Position numbers and translations under genes: made by a program. Positions 18,508 through 39,269 of a DNA stretch of 64,000 nt are shown piece by piece. Positions within the stretch are counted from its first letter, which is position 1, and every line of letters starts with the position of its first letter. The notes under the pieces are model-generated. The model was given only the letters and a program-made list of their open reading frames with translations, searched no databases and was not told the DNA's origin. Origin of the DNA: an uncultured Gammaproteobacteria bacterium (GTDB taxonomy: Bacteria; Patescibacteriota; Microgenomatia; Levybacterales; GWA1-39-11); assembly GCA_964394645.1 (NCBI GenBank), contig CAYMYC010000001.1, positions 117,299-181,298 of the forward strand. Reading direction: 5' to 3'.

Positions 18508-20886
18508 TTAATCTCCGCCTCTTTCTCTCAGTTGTCTTAAGAAAATATTTAGATCTTTTTCATCTACGATTCCGTCATCATCAAAATCCGCTGTTGTGTT
18601 ATTGCAGTTATTGTTTATTATGCAATTAACTATGATGTTATAATCCAAAATATCAAGTATTCCATCTTGTGTTAAATCTCCAACAGTTAGTGTAGTTGTA
18701 GGAAGAGTTATATTATTGGTGCTATCTTTTATAGTATAAAAACCAGGGATAGCCTTTTTAAGGGTAGGAGACCCATCAGCAAAATTCACTTTTATTTGAT
18801 ATGTGCCTGCCGGAACACTTAAAAGTGGCGCTTCTGCTGAAAACACACCGTTTGCATAGGTTAGAGGAGTTGTTGTCAATGAAACAACTTCTCCTTTATT
18901 GTTAATAAACTCAATACTAGCAACTCTGGATTTAGAAATAGGGTTTGTATTTCCTCCTACGCCTATCCCAGGTTGAACCAAGGTTACTTTCATTGTGCCT
19001 TTGGATGAGGATAATGTGGGTGTAGGATTTGATGGAGAAGGAGAAGGAGAAGGAGTGCTTGCAATAGGAGTGGTATTAGGTACAGTTGGAGTAGGATTTT
19101 GTGGTTGATCTGTTGGTGTTGGATTCTGATTGTCAGGTGCCAGAGAGTTTATTGCGCGTGCTAAATTTAACCTTGGACCAATAGGTAGATCAGTTGAGAC
19201 AGTGTCTGCGTTTGAAACTAATATATTTTTTATTTCGTCTGGGGATAGATTTGGTTTGATAGATAGGAGAAGTCCTGCAGCTCCTGCGACATGAGGAGCT
19301 GCCATAGAGGTTCCGTTCTCGTTTGCGTAAACCGCTTGTCCACCTTGAGAGTATGTTGATATAATATCAACACCTGGAGCAGATAGGGTAACAACTGATC
19401 CATAATTCGAGAAACTCGCTCGGTTATCGTTCTGATCTGTTGCTCCTACTGTTATAACACCATTGCAATTTGCAGGAGCAAACGAAGATGCATTTTGACT
19501 ATTGTTTCCTGCGGCGACTATTACAGCTGCGCCTTTGCTTCGAGCATAATTTATTGCCTGTTGGTAATCAGCTGGGCACGGTCCTGGTCCTCCAAGGCTC
19601 ATATTTATTGCTTTGGCTCCATTATCAGCCGCATAAATGATACCTTGTGTAATTGTGGTATCATTTTCAGATCCGCATTTACCATTTGATAATGGTCCCA
19701 TGATTTTTATTGCTATCATTTTTATATTCCAGTTAATTCCTGCCACCCCTTTTCCATTATTTGTTAGGGCTCCAATAGTTCCTGCAACGTGCGTTCCATG
19801 TCCGCAGTCATCCATAGGATCGTTATTATTTGCGAAATAATTTGGTCCCTTTACGACATTTGTTGACAAATCGGGATGATTATAGTCAACCCCGGTATCA
19901 TTTACAGAGACAATTACGCTATCTGATCCTTTTGTTCTATCCCAAGTTGTAGGGGCTTGGATTTTTTGAAGACCCCACTCCTGCCCATAATAAGGATCAT
20001 TTGGTGTTTCAAATGGATAGATTTTTCTAACAGGACGGATATAAGAAACTTCTGGAAGAGTAGCATATTTTTCAAGCGTTTCGTTGACGTTTGTTGATCC
20101 ATCAGTTGTTACAATATAGGAGTTTTGTAATGAATCAGGAGCTTGGGATACGTTTTGTGAGATTAAGGGTTTTTCTGATTTTAGTCCAACATCATTGGCT
20201 ACGTTATATATTCTTAATAATTTTTCCTCAGGTGTATCTTCTCCTTGAGCCTGTAAACTAACATTTTCGGCAGCAACTCGAGCAGTCCCGAGTATTGTAT
20301 TTTGTGCAGATACTCTTCTGTTTACATCTGAAGAGAGATCGACAGGTGTCTGTCCTTCTTTATATTGAATAAGAAATTTGTTTGGAGTAATAGTTGAATC
20401 TTCAGAACTTATTCTTGATGTAAATCTAAAATAATTATAGTCAACGTTTTGGACTTCTGGAATTTCTTTTATTTTTTTAAGTGCCTCATTAAGATTAGTT
20501 CCTTTTTTCAACGTTACTATGCTTGTTGTCGTTCCCCAAGGAAAACTTGTTGATTCTGACTTTACAACTCCTGCTTTTTTAAGACCCGTATTAATCTCGA
20601 CAAGTTTATTTTCGTAATAAGAAATAGGTTTTTCTTTTCCAGTTAACACTTTTATCTGATATCTGATAAGACCAGGGAGCGCTTTTGTTAGCATTTTTCT
20701 TTGCGTAATTTCATTTGATAATTCTTTAGGGGAATTTTTGGCAATATAGGTGACAACAAGTTTATCTTGTGAGAATTGTGGAGTTGTAGGGTATGTTTCG
20801 GGGGGAGGCACCTGTATTATTTGCGAATTTGCAGACGATACGAAAAAAAACAAAAGAAAAATAGCTAGAAAAAGTTTTTTTAGCAT
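18508..20886 (-). CDS. Subtilisin-like serine protease (S8) with C-terminal dockerin-like module
   Basis: Signal peptide; catalytic triad motifs DTGVDYNHPDL, HGTHVAGTIGA, GTSMAAPHVAG; Pro/Thr-rich linker; C-terminal DFDDDGIVDEKD Ca-binding dockerin-like repeat. Confidence 0.85.
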   Translation of the reverse strand: MLKKLFLAIFLLFFFVSSANSQIIQVPPPETYPTTPQFSQDKLVVTYIAKNSPKELSNEITQRKMLTKALPGLIRYQIKVLTGKEKPISYYENKLVEINTGLKKAGVVKSESTSFPWGTTTSIVTLKKGTNLNEALKKIKEIPEVQNVDYNYFRFTSRISSEDSTITPNKFLIQYKEGQTPVDLSSDVNRRVSAQNTILGTARVAAENVSLQAQGEDTPEEKLLRIYNVANDVGLKSEKPLISQNVSQAPDSLQNSYIVTTDGSTNVNETLEKYATLPEVSYIRPVRKIYPFETPNDPYYGQEWGLQKIQAPTTWDRTKGSDSVIVSVNDTGVDYNHPDLSTNVVKGPNYFANNNDPMDDCGHGTHVAGTIGALTNNGKGVAGINWNIKMIAIKIMGPLSNGKCGSENDTTITQGIIYAADNGAKAINMSLGGPGPCPADYQQAINYARSKGAAVIVAAGNNSQNASSFAPANCNGVITVGATDQNDNRASFSNYGSVVTLSAPGVDIISTYSQGGQAVYANENGTSMAAPHVAGAAGLLLSIKPNLSPDEIKNILVSNADTVSTDLPIGPRLNLARAINSLAPDNQNPTPTDQPQNPTPTVPNTTPIASTPSPSPSPSNPTPTLSSSKGTMKVTLVQPGIGVGGNTNPISKSRVASIEFINNKGEVVSLTTTPLTYANGVFSAEAPLLSVPAGTYQIKVNFADGSPTLKKAIPGFYTIKDSTNNITLPTTTLTVGDLTQDGILDILDYNIIVNCIINNNCNNTTADFDDDGIVDEKDLNIFLRQLRERGGD

Positions 20887-21097: not shown

Positions 21098-22276
21098 ATG
21101 GCAACATTTCAAAGAAACAAACCACACGTTAATATAGGAACCATCGGTCACGTTGACCATGGTAAAACCACGCTAACTGCAGCTATAACCACTGTTCTTG
21201 CAAAAAAAGGAATGGCAGAGGCAAGAAAATATGAAGATATTGATAATGCTCCAGAAGAACGAGCTCGTGGAGTTACGATCAACATTTCTCATCAAGAATA
21301 CGAAACTGAAAAAAGACACTACGCACATATTGATGCTCCAGGACATGCAGATTACATTAAAAACATGATTACAGGTGCCGCTCAAATGGACGGAGCTATC
21401 TTAGTAGTCTCTGCAGCTGACGGTCCAATGCCTCAAACACGTGAACACATCCTTCTTGCGCGTCAGGTTGGAGTTCCAGCTCTTGTTGTTTTTCTTAATA
21501 AAGTAGACATGGTACAAGATCCAGAGCTTATTGATTTAGTTGAGATGGAAGTACGTGAACTTCTCTCAAAGTATCAATATCCAGGCGATGAAATCCCTAT
21601 GGTTAAGGGATCAGCCTTAAAAGCTACTCAGGGAGATGCAGAAGCTGAGGAGCAAATAATGGAATTAATGGCAAAAGTTGATGAATATATTCCTACTCCA
21701 GAACGACCAACAGATAAGCCGTTATTAATGCCTGTTGAAGATGTCTTTTCAATCAAAGGACGCGGAACAGTTGTTACAGGAAGAATTGAACGAGGAATTG
21801 TAAAGATTAATGATACTGTTGCAATCATAGGTATTAAACCTACAAAAGAAGTAGTGGTTACTGGAGTTGAGATGTTTAGAAAACAATTAGATGAAGGACA
21901 AGCTGGAGATAACGTAGGATTACTTCTTCGCGGAATTGAAAAGCAGGATGTTGAACGCGGACAAGTTATAGCAAAACCCGGAAGTATTACTCCACACACA
22001 AAATTTGAAGCTGAAGTTTATATCTTAACCAAAGAAGAAGGCGGAAGGCACACTCCATTCTTTTCAGGATACAGACCTCAATTTTATATCAGAACAACTG
22101 ACGTAACAGGTGAAATTAAACTCCAAGAAGGCGTTGAAATGGTTATGCCAGGAGACAACGCAAAAATGACAGCAGAACTTATAGTTCCAGTTGCTATGGA
22201 AGAAGGAATGAGATTTGCAATCCGAGAAGGTGGAAGAACAGTTGGGGCAGGAGTAGTTACCAAAATCTTAGCTTAG
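21098..22276 (+). CDS. tuf: Elongation factor Tu
   Basis: 392 aa; [22 protein letters not shown] motifs. Confidence 0.97.
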
Positions 22277-22329
22277 TAGGCTCAGATTAATCGCACATTT
22301 TACATTTTTTAGTTAGTTTGGTAATATAA

Positions 22330-22354
22330 CCTCGCTCTCCTGCGAGGTTTTTTT
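22330..22354 (+). terminator. Intrinsic terminator/attenuator between tuf and rpsJ
   Basis: CCTCGC-tctcct-GCGAGG stem followed by TTTTTTT; only 22 nt before the rpsJ ATG, so partial readthrough is implied. Confidence 0.55.
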
Positions 22355-22376: not shown

Positions 22377-22685
22377 ATGCCAAAAGGAAGGATAAGAGTT
22401 AGATTGAAATCATATGATCCTCGAATAATAGATAGCACGTGTCAACAAATCTTAGACACGGCGATTCGTACTGGAGCAAAAGTAGTTGGTCCTGTACCAC
22501 TTCCTACTCAGCGTTCTATGTTTGCGGTAAATAAATCTGCATTTGTTGATAAAAACGCACAAGAACATTTCCAAATAAAAACCCACAAGCGTCTTATTGA
22601 TATTATGTCACCCACTGATAACACAATAGAATCATTAATCCATCTAGATCTTCCAGCGGGTGTAGATGTTGAAATTAAGATGTAA
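22377..22685 (+). CDS. rpsJ: 30S ribosomal protein S10
   Basis: 102 aa; canonical S10 sequence (RIRVRLKSYD...). Confidence 0.95.
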   Translation: MPKGRIRVRLKSYDPRIIDSTCQQILDTAIRTGAKVVGPVPLPTQRSMFAVNKSAFVDKNAQEHFQIKTHKRLIDIMSPTDNTIESLIHLDLPAGVDVEIKM

Positions 22686-22972
22686 CGTTCTTCATTTAAT
22701 ATTACTTTCCCAATAAACGAAGTAAGAAAAATAATAAAAATTGAAACATTTCAGGATGCTAATAAATTACGTTTTGATTACGCGAAACACAACCCATTTC
22801 CTCTTCAGATTTCTTAATTGTTAGAATGAGAGTTCTCATTGTAGGGGTTAGCCTCGTTGCGTGCTTGCATTTCTCTTGCAACTTCTATATAATAACTTTT
22901 ACTCATGTTTAGGTTTACTACCGAGACTGAATGGAATACTACATAAGAGCTTAGCTGCATTTTTTGCGTATG

Positions 22973-23000
22973 AAGCGACTTTATGTAGTCGCTTTTTTTT
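22973..23000 (+). terminator. Strong intrinsic-terminator-like hairpin at the end of the 315-nt rpsJ-rplC spacer
   Basis: AAGCGACT-ttatgt-AGTCGCTT stem followed by T8; ends immediately before the rplC start. Confidence 0.5.
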
Positions 23001-23012
23001 GTGTTTAAGTAT

Positions 23013-23891
23013 ATGTCTTTACAAGCAATTATTGGAAAAAAAATAGATCAGACGCAAGCATTTTTGGAAGACGGAAGACGAATTCCTCTTTCATTAATTT
23101 CTGTGTCTGGAAATGTTATTGCGCAAGTGAAGACACTGGAAAAGGATAAATACACTTCTGTACAGCTTGGATTTGGAGATAAAAAAAAGGCAGATAAGGC
23201 AACTACAGGACATATAAAAAAAGCGGGACTTACAAAAACGCCCCGCTTTTTTCGTGAAGTAAAAGTTGAAGATATCGCAGGGTATGAGGTTGGGGCAGTT
23301 GTGAATGTTGAAGAAATGCTAGAGCTGGGAGACGTTATTGATGTAACTGGTACATCAAAGGGAAAAGGGTACGCGGGGGTAGTTAAAAGACACGGATTTA
23401 AAGGTGGACCAAGAACCCATGGACAGTCTGATCGTGAGCGCGCACCTGGCTCAAGCGGTCAAACAACAACACCTGGACGTGTTTATAAGGGGAAGAGGAT
23501 GTCTGGTCGTATGGGGAATGAGCGTGTGACTATCAAAAATCTGACAGTTGTTGATATTAAAGATGGTGTAATTTACGTTCGTGGTTTAGTTCCTGGCGTA
23601 AAGGGTTCGCTAGTAATGATCTCAAAGGTGAAAGAAGATAAGAGAAGTCGTGCGACAAAGAAGAAATTTGTTCCTCTTTTCACAATTAAAGAAGAAGTTG
23701 TTGAAGACAAGAGTGCAGAGCCTGTTGTTGTAGAGACTGTAGAAGTTGAGGCACTTCCTGAAGAGCCACAGAAAGTAGTTGAAGATCAGACAGTGGAAGT
23801 AGTTGAGCCTAAGGAGGCAGTAAAAGAAGAATCAAAGACAGACGAAAAATTAAAAAAAGACGCTCCTGATGTAAAAGAGGAGGATAAGTAA
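23013..23891 (+). CDS. rplC: 50S ribosomal protein L3 (with ~85-aa Lys/Glu-rich C-terminal extension)
   Basis: L3 core (GKKIDQTQAF..DGRRIP, GYAGVVKRHGF). Start at second ATG 23013 (MSLQAIIGKK); the ORF-track ATG 23001 is an alternative. Confidence 0.9.
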   Translation: MSLQAIIGKKIDQTQAFLEDGRRIPLSLISVSGNVIAQVKTLEKDKYTSVQLGFGDKKKADKATTGHIKKAGLTKTPRFFREVKVEDIAGYEVGAVVNVEEMLELGDVIDVTGTSKGKGYAGVVKRHGFKGGPRTHGQSDRERAPGSSGQTTTPGRVYKGKRMSGRMGNERVTIKNLTVVDIKDGVIYVRGLVPGVKGSLVMISKVKEDKRSRATKKKFVPLFTIKEEVVEDKSAEPVVVETVEVEALPEEPQKVVEDQTVEVVEPKEAVKEESKTDEKLKKDAPDVKEEDK

Positions 23892-23893
23892 TT

Positions 23894-24685
23894 ATGGCTG
23901 ATAAAAAAATAAAAAAAGAGGTAGTCGTAAAAAAGACAAATCTAACTGTTAAAAAAACAGTTGTAAAGTCGGTAAAGAAGACTGAAAAAAGCACGGAAGA
24001 TACGAAAAAAAACAACGTTAAAGTAAATAAGCCTGCTGAAATAGCGACTACTTCCAAAGACACATTTTCAGTAGATGTTTATGGATTGGACGGCAAGGTG
24101 TCAGGGAAAGTAAATATTCCCACTGAAATCTTTAAAGCAAAAGTTAACCTTACTTTAATGGCGCAGGCTGTAAGAGTATATCTTGCTACACAAAGAAGTG
24201 GAACATCTTCTACAAAAACACGATCAGAAGTTTCAGGAACAACCAAAAAGATGTATCGCCAGAAGGGTACAGGGCGTGCCCGCCATGGGGCAGCAAAAGC
24301 ACCCATTTTTGTGGGTGGAGGAATTGCCTTTGGACCAAAGCCTAAAAGTTTTGCTCTTACTCTTCCGAAGAAAATGAGAAGAAAAGCGCTTTTCTCAGCC
24401 TTAACAAGTAAGTATTCAGAAAATAATCTTAGAATTCTAGATGCTTCACAGGCGACAGGGAAAACAAAAGAAATAGTAAGTACATTTAAAAATCTTGGAT
24501 TAACAAAAAAAATAACAGTTGTAGTTACCCCAGAAGAGAAACAAGTTGCCCGAGCAGCAAGAAATATTAAAGGAGTAACAGTTGAGCACGTTGCGAATTT
24601 AAATACATACAGTGTTTTAAATAGTAATACAGTTGTTTTTGCAAGAGACGCACTTATCGTTTTACAGAGCACGTTCTTGAAGTAA
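23894..24685 (+). CDS. rplD: 50S ribosomal protein L4 (with ~55-aa Lys-rich N-terminal extension)
   Basis: L4/L1e family core after the K-rich leader; position in S10 operon. Confidence 0.9.
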   Translation: MADKKIKKEVVVKKTNLTVKKTVVKSVKKTEKSTEDTKKNNVKVNKPAEIATTSKDTFSVDVYGLDGKVSGKVNIPTEIFKAKVNLTLMAQAVRVYLATQRSGTSSTKTRSEVSGTTKKMYRQKGTGRARHGAAKAPIFVGGGIAFGPKPKSFALTLPKKMRRKALFSALTSKYSENNLRILDASQATGKTKEIVSTFKNLGLTKKITVVVTPEEKQVARAARNIKGVTVEHVANLNTYSVLNSNTVVFARDALIVLQSTFLK

Positions 24686-24686
24686 T

Positions 24687-25037
24687 ATGAAAACTATAAT
24701 TATTAAACCATTAATTACAGAAACATCTATGAAAGATGCAGCTACAAACAAATTTACATTTTCCGTATTTAAAGATGCAACAAAGACAGAGATAAAGACA
24801 GCAGTTGAAAAAACATTTAATGTACATGTTATAGGGGTTACAACTGTTAATTTGACAAGGAGAAAAACTGTATTTACAAAGTTTGGTCGTAAAAAAACTG
24901 TTGAAAATATAAAAAAAGCACGTGTTGAGCTTGAAAAGGGGCAAACCATTCCAGCGTTTGAAATTGATGGTAAGAGAGAAGAGTCAAAAGTTAAGAAGGA
25001 GAAACAAGAAAAAAACAAAAAAGAAGAAACTAAGTAG
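24687..25037 (+). CDS. rplW: 50S ribosomal protein L23
   Basis: 116 aa; L23 fold with a K/E-rich C-terminal tail. Confidence 0.9.
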   Translation: MKTIIIKPLITETSMKDAATNKFTFSVFKDATKTEIKTAVEKTFNVHVIGVTTVNLTRRKTVFTKFGRKKTVENIKKARVELEKGQTIPAFEIDGKREESKVKKEKQEKNKKEETK

Positions 25038-37800: not shown

Positions 37801-38724
37801 ATGATCAGTCCTAAATTTAAAGTTGTCGAAGAAAATACACAAGAAAATTATACAAGATTTGTTTTTGAGCCATTAGAGCCTGGCTTCGGAAACACCTTAG
37901 GAGTTGCGCTTCGTCGCGTTCTACTAACTGGTATTGAAGGATCAGCAGTTACCTCAGTAAAAATTAACGGAGTAAAGCACATGTTCTCCACCCTTCCAGG
38001 ATTAAAAGAAGATATTATTGAGCTTATACTTAATATTAAAATGTTAAGAGTTAAAATGGCTGAAAGTAAAAAGGAAGCTAAATTGACACTTGAAGTGACA
38101 GGGCCAGGAGATGTTACTGCATCTAATATAGAAGTAGCAGACGGTATAGAGATAGTAAACGCTGATCACTACTTAGGTTCTCTTTCTGATAAAAAATCAA
38201 AACTAGAAATGGAAATGACAGTTGAGCGTGGTCTTGGGTATTCGCTTGCAGAGGAAAGAAAGATCTCAACAATTGGAGTTATTCCAATTGATGCAATATT
38301 CTCACCTGTTGTAAGAGTAAATTATAAGGTAGAGCAAACGCGCGTAGGACGTCAAACAAACTACGATAAGCTCGTTTTAGATGTATGGACTGACGGAACA
38401 ATTGTTTCTTCAGTTGTTTTGGAGCAAGCAGCTCGTATTTTAGTCTCATATTTTATGAGAGTATACGAACAAGATGAGGATGTTGTAGCTGAGCAAATCA
38501 TATCTTCACCAAAATTATCAGATGACGTAGCGAGAATGACAGTTGATGAGTTAGACTTGCCAACAAGAATTTATAACTCATTAAGAAATGCTGGAATAGA
38601 AACTGTTGGTCAACTTCTAACAACTCCTAAAAAAGAATTAATGAACTATAGAAACCTTGGGGCAAAATCACTCTCCGTTATTGATGAAAGCCTTAAGGAA
38701 AAAGGAATAGATTTCAACATCTAA
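37801..38724 (+). CDS. rpoA: DNA-directed RNA polymerase subunit alpha
   Basis: Start chosen at ATG 37801 (MISPKFKVVEEN...); NTD dimerisation domain and alpha-CTD. Confidence 0.9.
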   Translation: MISPKFKVVEENTQENYTRFVFEPLEPGFGNTLGVALRRVLLTGIEGSAVTSVKINGVKHMFSTLPGLKEDIIELILNIKMLRVKMAESKKEAKLTLEVTGPGDVTASNIEVADGIEIVNADHYLGSLSDKKSKLEMEMTVERGLGYSLAEERKISTIGVIPIDAIFSPVVRVNYKVEQTRVGRQTNYDKLVLDVWTDGTIVSSVVLEQAARILVSYFMRVYEQDEDVVAEQIISSPKLSDDVARMTVDELDLPTRIYNSLRNAGIETVGQLLTTPKKELMNYRNLGAKSLSVIDESLKEKGIDFNI

Positions 38725-38762: not shown

Positions 38763-38785
38763 GCGTCTTAACCGACGCTTTTTTT
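38763..38785 (+). terminator. Intrinsic-terminator-like hairpin between rpoA and rplQ
   Basis: GCGTC-ttaacc-GACGC stem followed by T7; 8 nt before the rplQ ATG. Confidence 0.5.
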
Positions 38786-38792
38786 ATAAAAG

Positions 38793-39269
38793 ATGAGAAA
38801 AAGAGTATTTGGTAAAAAATTAAAAAGAACAACGAATCAAAGAAAGGCGCTTTTTAGATCGCTCACGCAAGCGCTTGTTTTGCATGGTAGAATAAAAACA
38901 ACGGAAGCTAAAGCAAAAGCGATAAAAGGAGAAATTGAAAAATTAATAACTTACGCAAAAAATAACAAAGAAAACGCTTATAACCATTTGCAGCACCATG
39001 TACATCCGAAAACAGCTGAAGGAATTATAGTAATAGCACCAGTGTTTGAGAACAGACCAGGAGGATATACAAGAATTATAAGAATTGGTGGAAGAAAAAA
39101 GGATAACGCAGCGATGGTATTATTGGAGTTTGTAGAAAAAACACAGTCTGTAATTGTTGAAAAACCCAAGAAAGATGAGAAAAAAACGGTTGAAAAAGCG
39201 CCTCAAGCAGACGATAAAAAGATAAAGAAAGGAAAGGATGCAAAATCTAACAAAACCAACAAAAAGTAA
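38793..39269 (+). CDS. rplQ: 50S ribosomal protein L17 (Lys-rich C-terminal extension)
   Basis: L17 core (GGYTRIIRIG); 158 aa. Confidence 0.9.
   Translation: MRKRVFGKKLKRTTNQRKALFRSLTQALVLHGRIKTTEAKAKAIKGEIEKLITYAKNNKENAYNHLQHHVHPKTAEGIIVIAPVFENRPGGYTRIIRIGGRKKDNAAMVLLEFVEKTQSVIVEKPKKDEKKTVEKAPQADDKKIKKGKDAKSNKTNKK

Follow-up and report, generated by a model that had tools for sequence, protein, structure and literature searches.

The rpsJ-rplC spacer

We analysed a stretch of 64,000 nucleotides (nt), hereafter the window, from a contig deposited as an uncultured Gammaproteobacteria bacterium (GenBank assembly GCA_964394645.1, contig CAYMYC010000001.1, positions 117,299 to 181,298 of the forward strand) and placed by GTDB in the Levybacterales (Patescibacteriota; Microgenomatia). 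Our subject is the spacer between rpsJ and rplC, the genes for ribosomal proteins S10 and L3. On the + strand, the genes follow each other as tuf (21098-22276), rpsJ (22377-22685), the spacer, rplC (ATG at 23013), rplD, rplW (24687) and rplB (25046), and a tightly packed cluster extends from rplC through rplD-rplW-rplB, secY, map and infA to rpoA, ending at 38724. A preliminary description of this DNA was right that noncoding sequence separates rpsJ from rplC, although the spacer measures 327 nt (22686-23012) and not 315 nt. The relevant features are the following:

22377-22685, + strand: rpsJ (ribosomal protein S10, PF00338)
22686 to about 22847: fast-evolving, non-coding 5' half of the spacer (about 160 nt)
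22848-22864, + strand: conserved block TTAGCCTCGTTGCGTGC (TTAGCCTCnTT[TG]nGTGC), just upstream of the -35 box
22865-22893, + strand: promoter TTGCAT-N17-TATAAT (-35 box 22865-22870, -10 box 22888-22893)
22905-22946, + strand: upstream open reading frame (uORF), ATG...ACA TAA, 13 codons, encoding MFRFTTETEWNTT and a stop
22907-22927, + strand: small hairpin inside the uORF (GUUUAGGU/ACCGAGAC)
22938-22989, + strand: antiterminator, from the RNAalifold consensus of the window's clade
22972-23000, + strand: intrinsic terminator, 9-bp stem, 6-nt loop and T8
23013-23891, + strand: rplC, first gene of the putatively gated operon
23894-24685: rplD (L4), downstream of rplC

The GTG at 23001 was ruled out as the start of rplC, as it is out of frame with ATG 23013 in relatives with a different spacing, such as locus L009. 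Rfam searches at the gathering score and at E <= 10, and ARAGORN searches for transfer RNA and transfer-messenger RNA (tmRNA), gave no family match in the spacer, with hits at chance level only; these null results rule out signal recognition particle RNA, 6S RNA, tmRNA, riboswitches and the known ribosomal protein (r-protein) leaders as identities for it. The spacer had also been described as structured throughout, but on the + strand its folding as a whole was not significant (z = -0.87), and only its 108-nt 3' part was unusually structured (z = -2.2).

A conserved module adjoining rplC

We compared 24 distinct Levybacteria leaders, drawn from 12 species representatives, a small number of metagenome contigs and 10 loci retrieved by way of L3 homologues. 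A metagenome scan with an L3 profile mostly returned bacteria other than Levybacteria, because the patterns were too universal, and contributed about six useful loci. Six records titled 'uncultured Gammaproteobacteria bacterium' (L012-L015, L017 and L018) have S10 proteins 76-96% and L3 proteins 60-76% identical to those of the window and carry the same leader module; judging by these sequences, the records look mislabelled.

Aligning the spacer among relatives, as had been proposed, divided it in two: the 5' half (22686 to about 22847) is not conserved, whereas the 3' half (22848-23000, about 150 nt) forms a module present in 24 of 24 leaders and almost invariant among strains with identical S10. 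Between species, the last 63 nt, which we call the switch segment, are 80-94% identical, as compared with 78-82% for the S10 coding sequence and 68-75% for that of L3. The interior of the leader RNA is 61-76% identical between species, and positions 22938-22995 are nearly invariant in sequence and not only in pairing. The Levybacteria leaders fall into two clades that have little sequence in common beyond the promoter, the start, the stop and the terminator. The module occurs once in the window, with no second copy.

A promoter and a short open reading frame

An exact TTGCA[A/T]-N17/18-TATAAT sequence occupies the same place in 24/24 leaders, always within TATATAAT, and the copy at 22865-22893 is the sole exact match to the TTGCAT-N17-TATAAT pattern in the 64-kb window. 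Differences between relatives are confined to the 17-nt promoter spacer. A generic promoter scan omits this site, TTGCAT agreeing with TTGACA at three of six positions, and its status as a promoter thus rests on conservation. From its position we infer a transcription start near 22900, which would leave a 5' untranslated region of about 2-5 nt. Small open reading frames (ORFs) on the minus strand (22759-22881 and 22814-22960) were considered and rejected: the substitutions among relatives are mostly non-synonymous in them and fall exactly in the + strand promoter spacer, and the T-run is found on the + strand only. The block TTAGCCTCnTT[TG]nGTGC, found in most Levybacteria leaders, may serve as an UP-element-like sequence, as a site for a regulator or as a structural part of read-through transcripts from rpsJ.

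In the window, the ATG of the uORF lies 11 nt after the -10 box and has no Shine-Dalgarno sequence. Across the leaders this distance is 9-14 nt, mostly again without a Shine-Dalgarno sequence, the exception being L018, where a TTG stands at 9 nt and the in-frame ATG follows at 15 nt. All 24 leaders keep the frame open, over 7, 11, 12 or 13 codons, and their stops align with one another. The stop is TAA, TAG or TGA and comes directly after an ACA codon, replaced by ACG in one leader and by ACT in another. Of the two alternative frames, one is interrupted by stops in 17 of the 24 leaders and the other in 18. Three features would be difficult to account for if the frame were not read: length differences of whole codons, a stop that toggles only among the three stop codons, and closure of the other frames. 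It would be translation, rather than the peptide product, that matters. The hairpin inside the uORF is loosely conserved (56% of cells pair, and its register shifts among sequences), and we did not rely upon it.

The preliminary description, which had noticed the stem before rplC, lacked both the module's own conserved promoter and the in-frame uORF of 7-13 codons with its stop inside the antiterminator.

The terminator before rplC

The terminator consists of GAAGCGACT (22972-22980), the loop TTATGT, AGTCGCTTT (22987-22995) and a T-run to 23000, ending 12 nt before the rplC ATG. The stem and T8 reported directly at the rplC start are confirmed, with nine pairs at 22972-22995 in place of the 8 bp first counted. 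The terminator is kept in all Levybacteria loci, its stems covarying by compensatory changes between the two sequence clades, and it stands between the short ORF and the first structural gene. The hairpin and T-run end 10-40 nt upstream of rplC, with an extra 90-130 nt in L013, L014 and L173.

This arrangement is largely particular to the group. A terminator within 60 nt of rplC was found at 22 of 28 loci with L3 at least 52% identical to that of the window (Levybacteria and neighbouring lineages of the Candidate Phyla Radiation, CPR), as compared with 5 of 127 loci from more distant bacteria, and the median S10-L3 gap was 257 nt in the former and 27 nt in the latter. Where S10 was found, the five distant loci with a terminator had gaps of 120-321 nt, and one of the five shares the terminator sequence of the CPR loci L095 and L096.

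A promoter scan found no promoter-like site in the 12 nt between the T-run and the rplC ATG, and a promoter at that place was rejected; rplC must therefore be transcribed through the terminator at 22972-23000. No strong + strand terminator follows position 23000 before 38763-38785 and, together with the 12-nt gap, this means that a switch at the terminator would gate about 15.7 kb, from rplC to rpoA.

Its own strong promoter and strong terminator, which would delimit a discrete RNA of about 100 nt, and its high conservation could also denote an independent small RNA gene that acts in trans, with rplC expressed by leaky read-through; attenuator-derived RNAs can act in trans, as does rnTrpL (PMC6614838). 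We regard such a gene, which the preliminary description had proposed, as very unlikely: the module adjoins rplC in every lineage, including those in which its sequence is fully different, the interior of the RNA evolves fast, and neither the in-frame uORF nor the bistable pair of folds described below is needed by a small RNA. The single copy in the window and the absence of an Rfam match argue in the same direction. By analogy with PMC6614838, the terminated leader RNA could still act in trans as a by-product.

A mutually exclusive antiterminator

Applied to the window's clade, RNAalifold returned not the terminator but an antiterminator. In this fold, ACUACAUAAG (22938-47, the last codon and stop of the uORF) pairs with UUUAUGUAGU (22980-89, the terminator loop and the first three bases of the 3' arm), and GCUU (22949-52) pairs with AAGC (22973-76) of the terminator 5' arm, enclosing a variable inner hairpin of UGCA (22956-59) with UGCG (22965-68). 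The two folds of the window RNA are isoenergetic (terminator -24.8 and antiterminator -24.8 kcal/mol). When the RNA was truncated ahead of the rest of the terminator 3' arm, the minimum free energy structure was the antiterminator; when the 5' end was masked to 12 nt past the uORF stop, the terminator was the sole remaining fold.

The pairing between the terminator arm and loop and upstream sequence amounts to -11.3 kcal/mol, as compared with -4.4 ± 2.2 in dinucleotide shuffles, of which 2 in 200 reach the native value. For most members of the window's clade, stabilisation by the antiterminator exceeds 98-99% of such shuffles. In 15 sequences, 95% of the cells of the helix pair, mostly through invariant bases; the pair of positions 54 and 94 is GC in eight, AU in three and unpaired in four, and ties the choice of TAG or TAA as the stop to that of C or U in the terminator loop. 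Two further compensatory pairs lie in the inner hairpin, and the covariation score of the antiterminator (0.106 versus 0.075) was reached by none of 500 shuffles. In 17 of 19 leaders taken from divergent sub-clades, the upstream partner of the terminator arm and loop lies at -9 to +18 nt of the uORF stop, that is, within the ribosome footprint. Helix parsing gave no result for four sequences in the antiterminator shuffle test and for two in the stop-position test. An exclusive antiterminator within reach of the ribosome is thus strongly indicated in the window's clade and more weakly in L015-L017 and L089-L091.

Attenuation-type control, suggested earlier for this locus, is therefore supported, both by the mutually exclusive antiterminator and by the gap separating the terminator from the rplC ATG, which is too short to hold a promoter. 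In a passive arrangement, the hairpin would simply end the unit formed by rpsJ (and any inserted ORF), and a constitutive rplC promoter with partial read-through would set a fixed stoichiometry and sense nothing. Two other terminators in the window, at the tuf-rpsJ and rpoA-rplQ junctions, stand immediately before r-protein genes, so partial terminators between such genes may be a general habit of this genome; moreover, the number of terminator-like sites (four, as compared with 2.1 ± 1.6 in shuffles) is not exceptional on its own. Nevertheless, transcripts from the module's promoter hold the complete terminator, which lies about 100 nt downstream of it, unlike at tuf-rpsJ, and a passive role leaves unexplained the uORF frame, the isoenergetic alternative fold and the coding-level conservation between promoter and terminator. 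We consider this arrangement improbable.

A candidate ribosome-mediated attenuator

We propose, with a probability of about 0.55, that the 3' 150 nt of the spacer are a self-contained, ribosome-mediated transcription attenuator that gates the rplC-rpoA operon. The sigma-70-type promoter would start an RNA in which some 2-5 untranslated nt precede the 13-codon uORF, which lacks a Shine-Dalgarno sequence. The last codons and stop of the uORF would form the 5' strand of the antiterminator (22938-22952), pairing with the 5' arm, the loop and the first bases of the 3' arm of the terminator (22973-22989). In a naked nascent RNA, the antiterminator would form first and polymerase would read into rplC. 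A ribosome at or near the uORF stop would instead cover the 5' strand of the antiterminator (about 22938-22958), allowing the terminator to form and transcription to stop 12 nt before rplC. The net logic would be a negative feedback: prompt, efficient translation would lower transcription of the r-protein genes, and scarce, slow or stalled ribosomes would raise it.

Several observations weigh against this proposal. The start site, termination and uORF translation are predictions from sequence. Codon-position entropy in the uORF is flat (9.4, 8.4 and 9.3 bits), which gives no sign of coding-type selection on the peptide, and the 24 leaders have no conserved run of regulatory codons, tandem or otherwise, with Thr enriched in some peptides only. 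Initiation is assumed to be efficient, although there is no Shine-Dalgarno sequence, the ATG lies about 2-5 nt from the inferred start instead of at +1, and the weak hairpin includes the start codon. In transcripts that begin at the rpsJ promoter, the uORF would be internal. As the antiterminator consists mostly of invariant pairs, its covariation is limited to one pair (unpaired in 4 of 15 sequences) and the inner hairpin; the near-invariant sequence could equally be a protein-binding site. Finally, in the second clade (L015-L017 and L089-L091) the antiterminator is weaker or ambiguous in the shuffle test, and in the RNAalifold fold the region of the start codon is paired with a segment further downstream, while the terminator stays free. 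This modelled fold predicts trp-like behaviour, with termination also when the leader is not translated, so that the sign of the response may differ in that clade or be wrong in our proposal.

Relation to known attenuators

Transcription attenuators with leader peptides control the trp, his, thr, leu and pheA operons and are represented in Rfam by Trp_leader, Phe_leader and related models. The module resembles the trp type in its promoter-proximal short ORF, in the terminator before the first structural gene, in the mutually exclusive antiterminator and in a leader stop placed so that a terminating ribosome masks the 5' strand of the antiterminator. Unlike that type, its targets are r-protein, secY and rpoA genes and not genes of amino-acid biosynthesis, it has no run of cognate amino-acid codons, no Shine-Dalgarno sequence and a very short 5' untranslated region, and its untranslated RNA is predicted, in the window's clade, to favour read-through and not super-attenuation. 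Rfam leader models scored only at chance level in our searches, at the tuf hairpin and not at the rplC module. Taken together, the short ORF kept open, the terminator behind it and the exclusive antiterminator within ribosome reach suggest that the module most likely works like a leader-peptide attenuator, albeit one devoid of regulatory codon runs.

The S10 operon of Escherichia coli is controlled by L4- and NusA-dependent attenuation in the 5' leader of rpsJ. In both cases attenuation would take place at a hairpin and U-run just upstream of genes of the S10 cluster, with L4 encoded downstream; the module differs in lying between rpsJ and rplC and in having its own promoter and a conserved uORF, and we detected no similarity in sequence or structure. 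Neither its position nor its sequence places it in the E. coli S10-leader family. The r-protein regulatory RNAs of E. coli, the S10 leader included, are reported to be narrowly distributed, within the Gammaproteobacteria (PMC3616713).

An r-protein could nonetheless be the sensor, as in the S10 leader: L4 or L3 would bind the leader RNA and promote termination at 22972-23000, the uORF being incidental or auxiliary. The terminator does lie immediately upstream of an operon encoding both proteins, and near invariance of the sequence of 22938-22995 is what a protein-binding site would be expected to show. Leaders of this kind are diverse and lineage-specific, a candidate L4 leader having been reported upstream of rplC-rplD in Archaeoglobi (PMC7247131), and protein binding might coexist with a uORF, as do L10(L12)4 binding and a leader peptide in Bacillus subtilis rplJL (PMC4538822). 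Against it, no Rfam r-protein leader matched even at E <= 10, nothing in our analysis points to L4, and the module follows rpsJ and is not in the rpsJ leader. Regulation by an r-protein would also leave unexplained the strict conservation of the frame, the identity of the stop (TAA, TAG or TGA) and the distance from the ATG to the -10 box, and the scarcity of leader sequence common to the two clades is not what one would expect if the leader mimicked a conserved rRNA site. We therefore consider autogenous control by L4 or L3 unlikely.

Closer parallels to a ribosome-mediated attenuator come from systems in which translation of a leader takes part. In B. subtilis rplJL, L10(L12)4 exerts attenuation and a translated leader peptide modulates the attenuator (PMC4538822); by analogy, both would be r-protein operons under terminator/antiterminator control in which leader-peptide translation affects expression. 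In rplJL, however, the effect of the leader peptide is to increase expression, presumably because Rho is blocked, and sensing falls primarily to an r-protein complex, whereas the geometry of the module suggests that the ribosome itself selects the terminator. uORF attenuators that respond to translation stress, such as those of the ermC type, vmlR and the topAI uORF (PMC9226507, PMC12121999), and the leaderless short Cys ORFs that act as attenuators in mycobacteria (bioRxiv 10.1101/834739) likewise use short uORFs that lack amino-acid specificity or are leaderless, the position of the ribosome deciding the fold. Unlike the module, they control resistance, toxin or cysteine genes, several act on translation or via Rho, and none has been reported before the main r-protein operon or in CPR bacteria. 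No report of such an element, either upstream of rplC or in CPR/Patescibacteria, turned up in our literature searches, an absence that is not proof of novelty.

Leaders of other CPR lineages

In other CPR lineages (L095, L096, L098, L100 and L126), the 150 nt or so upstream of rplC hold a different but analogous leader, composed of a TGGTATACT promoter, an ATG 12-15 nt later, an ORF of 7-17 codons, the motif ACCAAAAGTCTCGG and the terminator CGACCTCAACCGAGGTCG-T7. The short ORF of L100 ends in GCT ACA TAA, as in Levybacteria. Conservation of the frame is not clear among these leaders, L098 breaking the pattern, and we do not claim a uORF mechanism for them.

The 5' half of the spacer

The regulatory device does not extend into this half. 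Among contigs with 100% identical S10, four (L002, L004, L007 and L008) have a 124-aa ORF right after rpsJ, L001 and L005 retain a 45-aa remnant, and the window and two others have a shorter sequence only. In the window this sequence is 62% identical to the L001 remnant and has stops in all frames. Pfam searches with the 124-aa ORF, and with ORFs that fill the same gap in other species, found no family, and the ORFs of different species are unrelated to each other. The 5' half is thus probably, from these comparisons, the decayed remnant of a lineage-specific small gene at the junction of two transcription units. The hairpin AATGAG-AGTT-CTCATT described earlier is indeed present, at 22825-22840, but it is not conserved even among genomes with identical S10.

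More widely, the junction of S10 and L3 is an insertion hot spot in Levybacteria, with unrelated ORFs of 118-124 aa on either strand (L002, 3311-3685; L169, 629-988 on the minus strand; L170, 671-1027). The insert reaches 2.4 kb in L011 (about 100-2340) and, among strains with identical S10, the inserted ORF may be present, a remnant or absent.

rpsJ and the tuf terminator

Two further features precede rpsJ:

22299-22327, + strand: promoter-like site for rpsJ, TTTACA-17-TAATAT with a TG extension, from the promoter scan
22328-22354, + strand: intrinsic terminator after tuf (stem 22328-22349, T-run to 22354), eight pairs, five of them G-C

The arms of the tuf terminator are AACCTCGC and GCGAGGTT. 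The terminator-like hairpin noted earlier at 22 nt upstream of the rpsJ ATG is real and conserved, and its stems change in a compensatory manner across species (CCTCGC/GCGAGG, CCCGGC/GCTGGG, CCTGC/GCAGG and CCTAC/GTAGG). S10 is accordingly bracketed by two conserved intrinsic terminators, at 22328-22354 and 22972-23000, as had been suspected. The promoter-like site directly adjoins the hairpin, and the block CACATTT[TA]ACA...TGGTAATAT is kept in Levybacteria loci together with the covarying hairpin. We infer that transcription from this site starts within the 5' arm of the hairpin, in which case rpsJ transcripts would escape the terminator that stops those of tuf. rpsJ thus appears to be a small transcription unit of its own, which explains how genes can be inserted after it.

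Neighbouring genes

L3 has a Lys/Glu-rich C-terminal extension of about 80 aa (positions 23013-25037 cover L3, L4 and L23), and its tail varies in length among strains, giving proteins of 292-307 aa; L4 has a Lys-rich N-terminal extension of about 55 aa and L23 a Lys-rich tail. Divergently oriented upstream of tuf (18508-20886, minus strand) is the gene for a 792-aa secreted subtilisin-like protein (Peptidase_S8) with a Pro/Thr-rich linker and a dockerin-like C-terminus, in a synteny that is kept in close relatives. A third terminator directly before an r-protein gene, GCGTC-TTAACC-GACGC and T7 (38763-38795), follows rpoA at a distance of 38 nt and leaves about 8 nt to the rplQ ATG (38793), with rplQ-rplM downstream.

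Implications for ribosome synthesis

How the synthesis of r-proteins is balanced outside the model phyla is, to our knowledge, largely unknown. We tentatively extend our proposal to Levybacteria in general and, in a variant form, to other Microgenomates or CPR bacteria: entry into the r-protein super-operon, from rplC to rpoA, may be controlled by the ribosome itself and not by an r-protein repressor, with a nearly leaderless uORF, devoid of a Shine-Dalgarno sequence, reporting the speed of initiation and completion and thereby setting the balance between termination and read-through.

For annotation, the module accounts for the separation of rpsJ and rplC by 130-2400 nt across lineages and for a junction that collects inserted genes, and it is a candidate addition to the catalogue of r-protein leaders. 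At about 140 nt, it is also compact enough to be portable to reporter systems. If the proposal is true, ribosome synthesis in these organisms is under direct feedback from translation capacity, and about 28 genes, including those for most large- and small-subunit proteins, SecY, IF1 and RpoA, depend on one 100-nt switch read by the ribosome, which would provide ultra-small, host-dependent bacteria with a simple homeostat of translation capacity.

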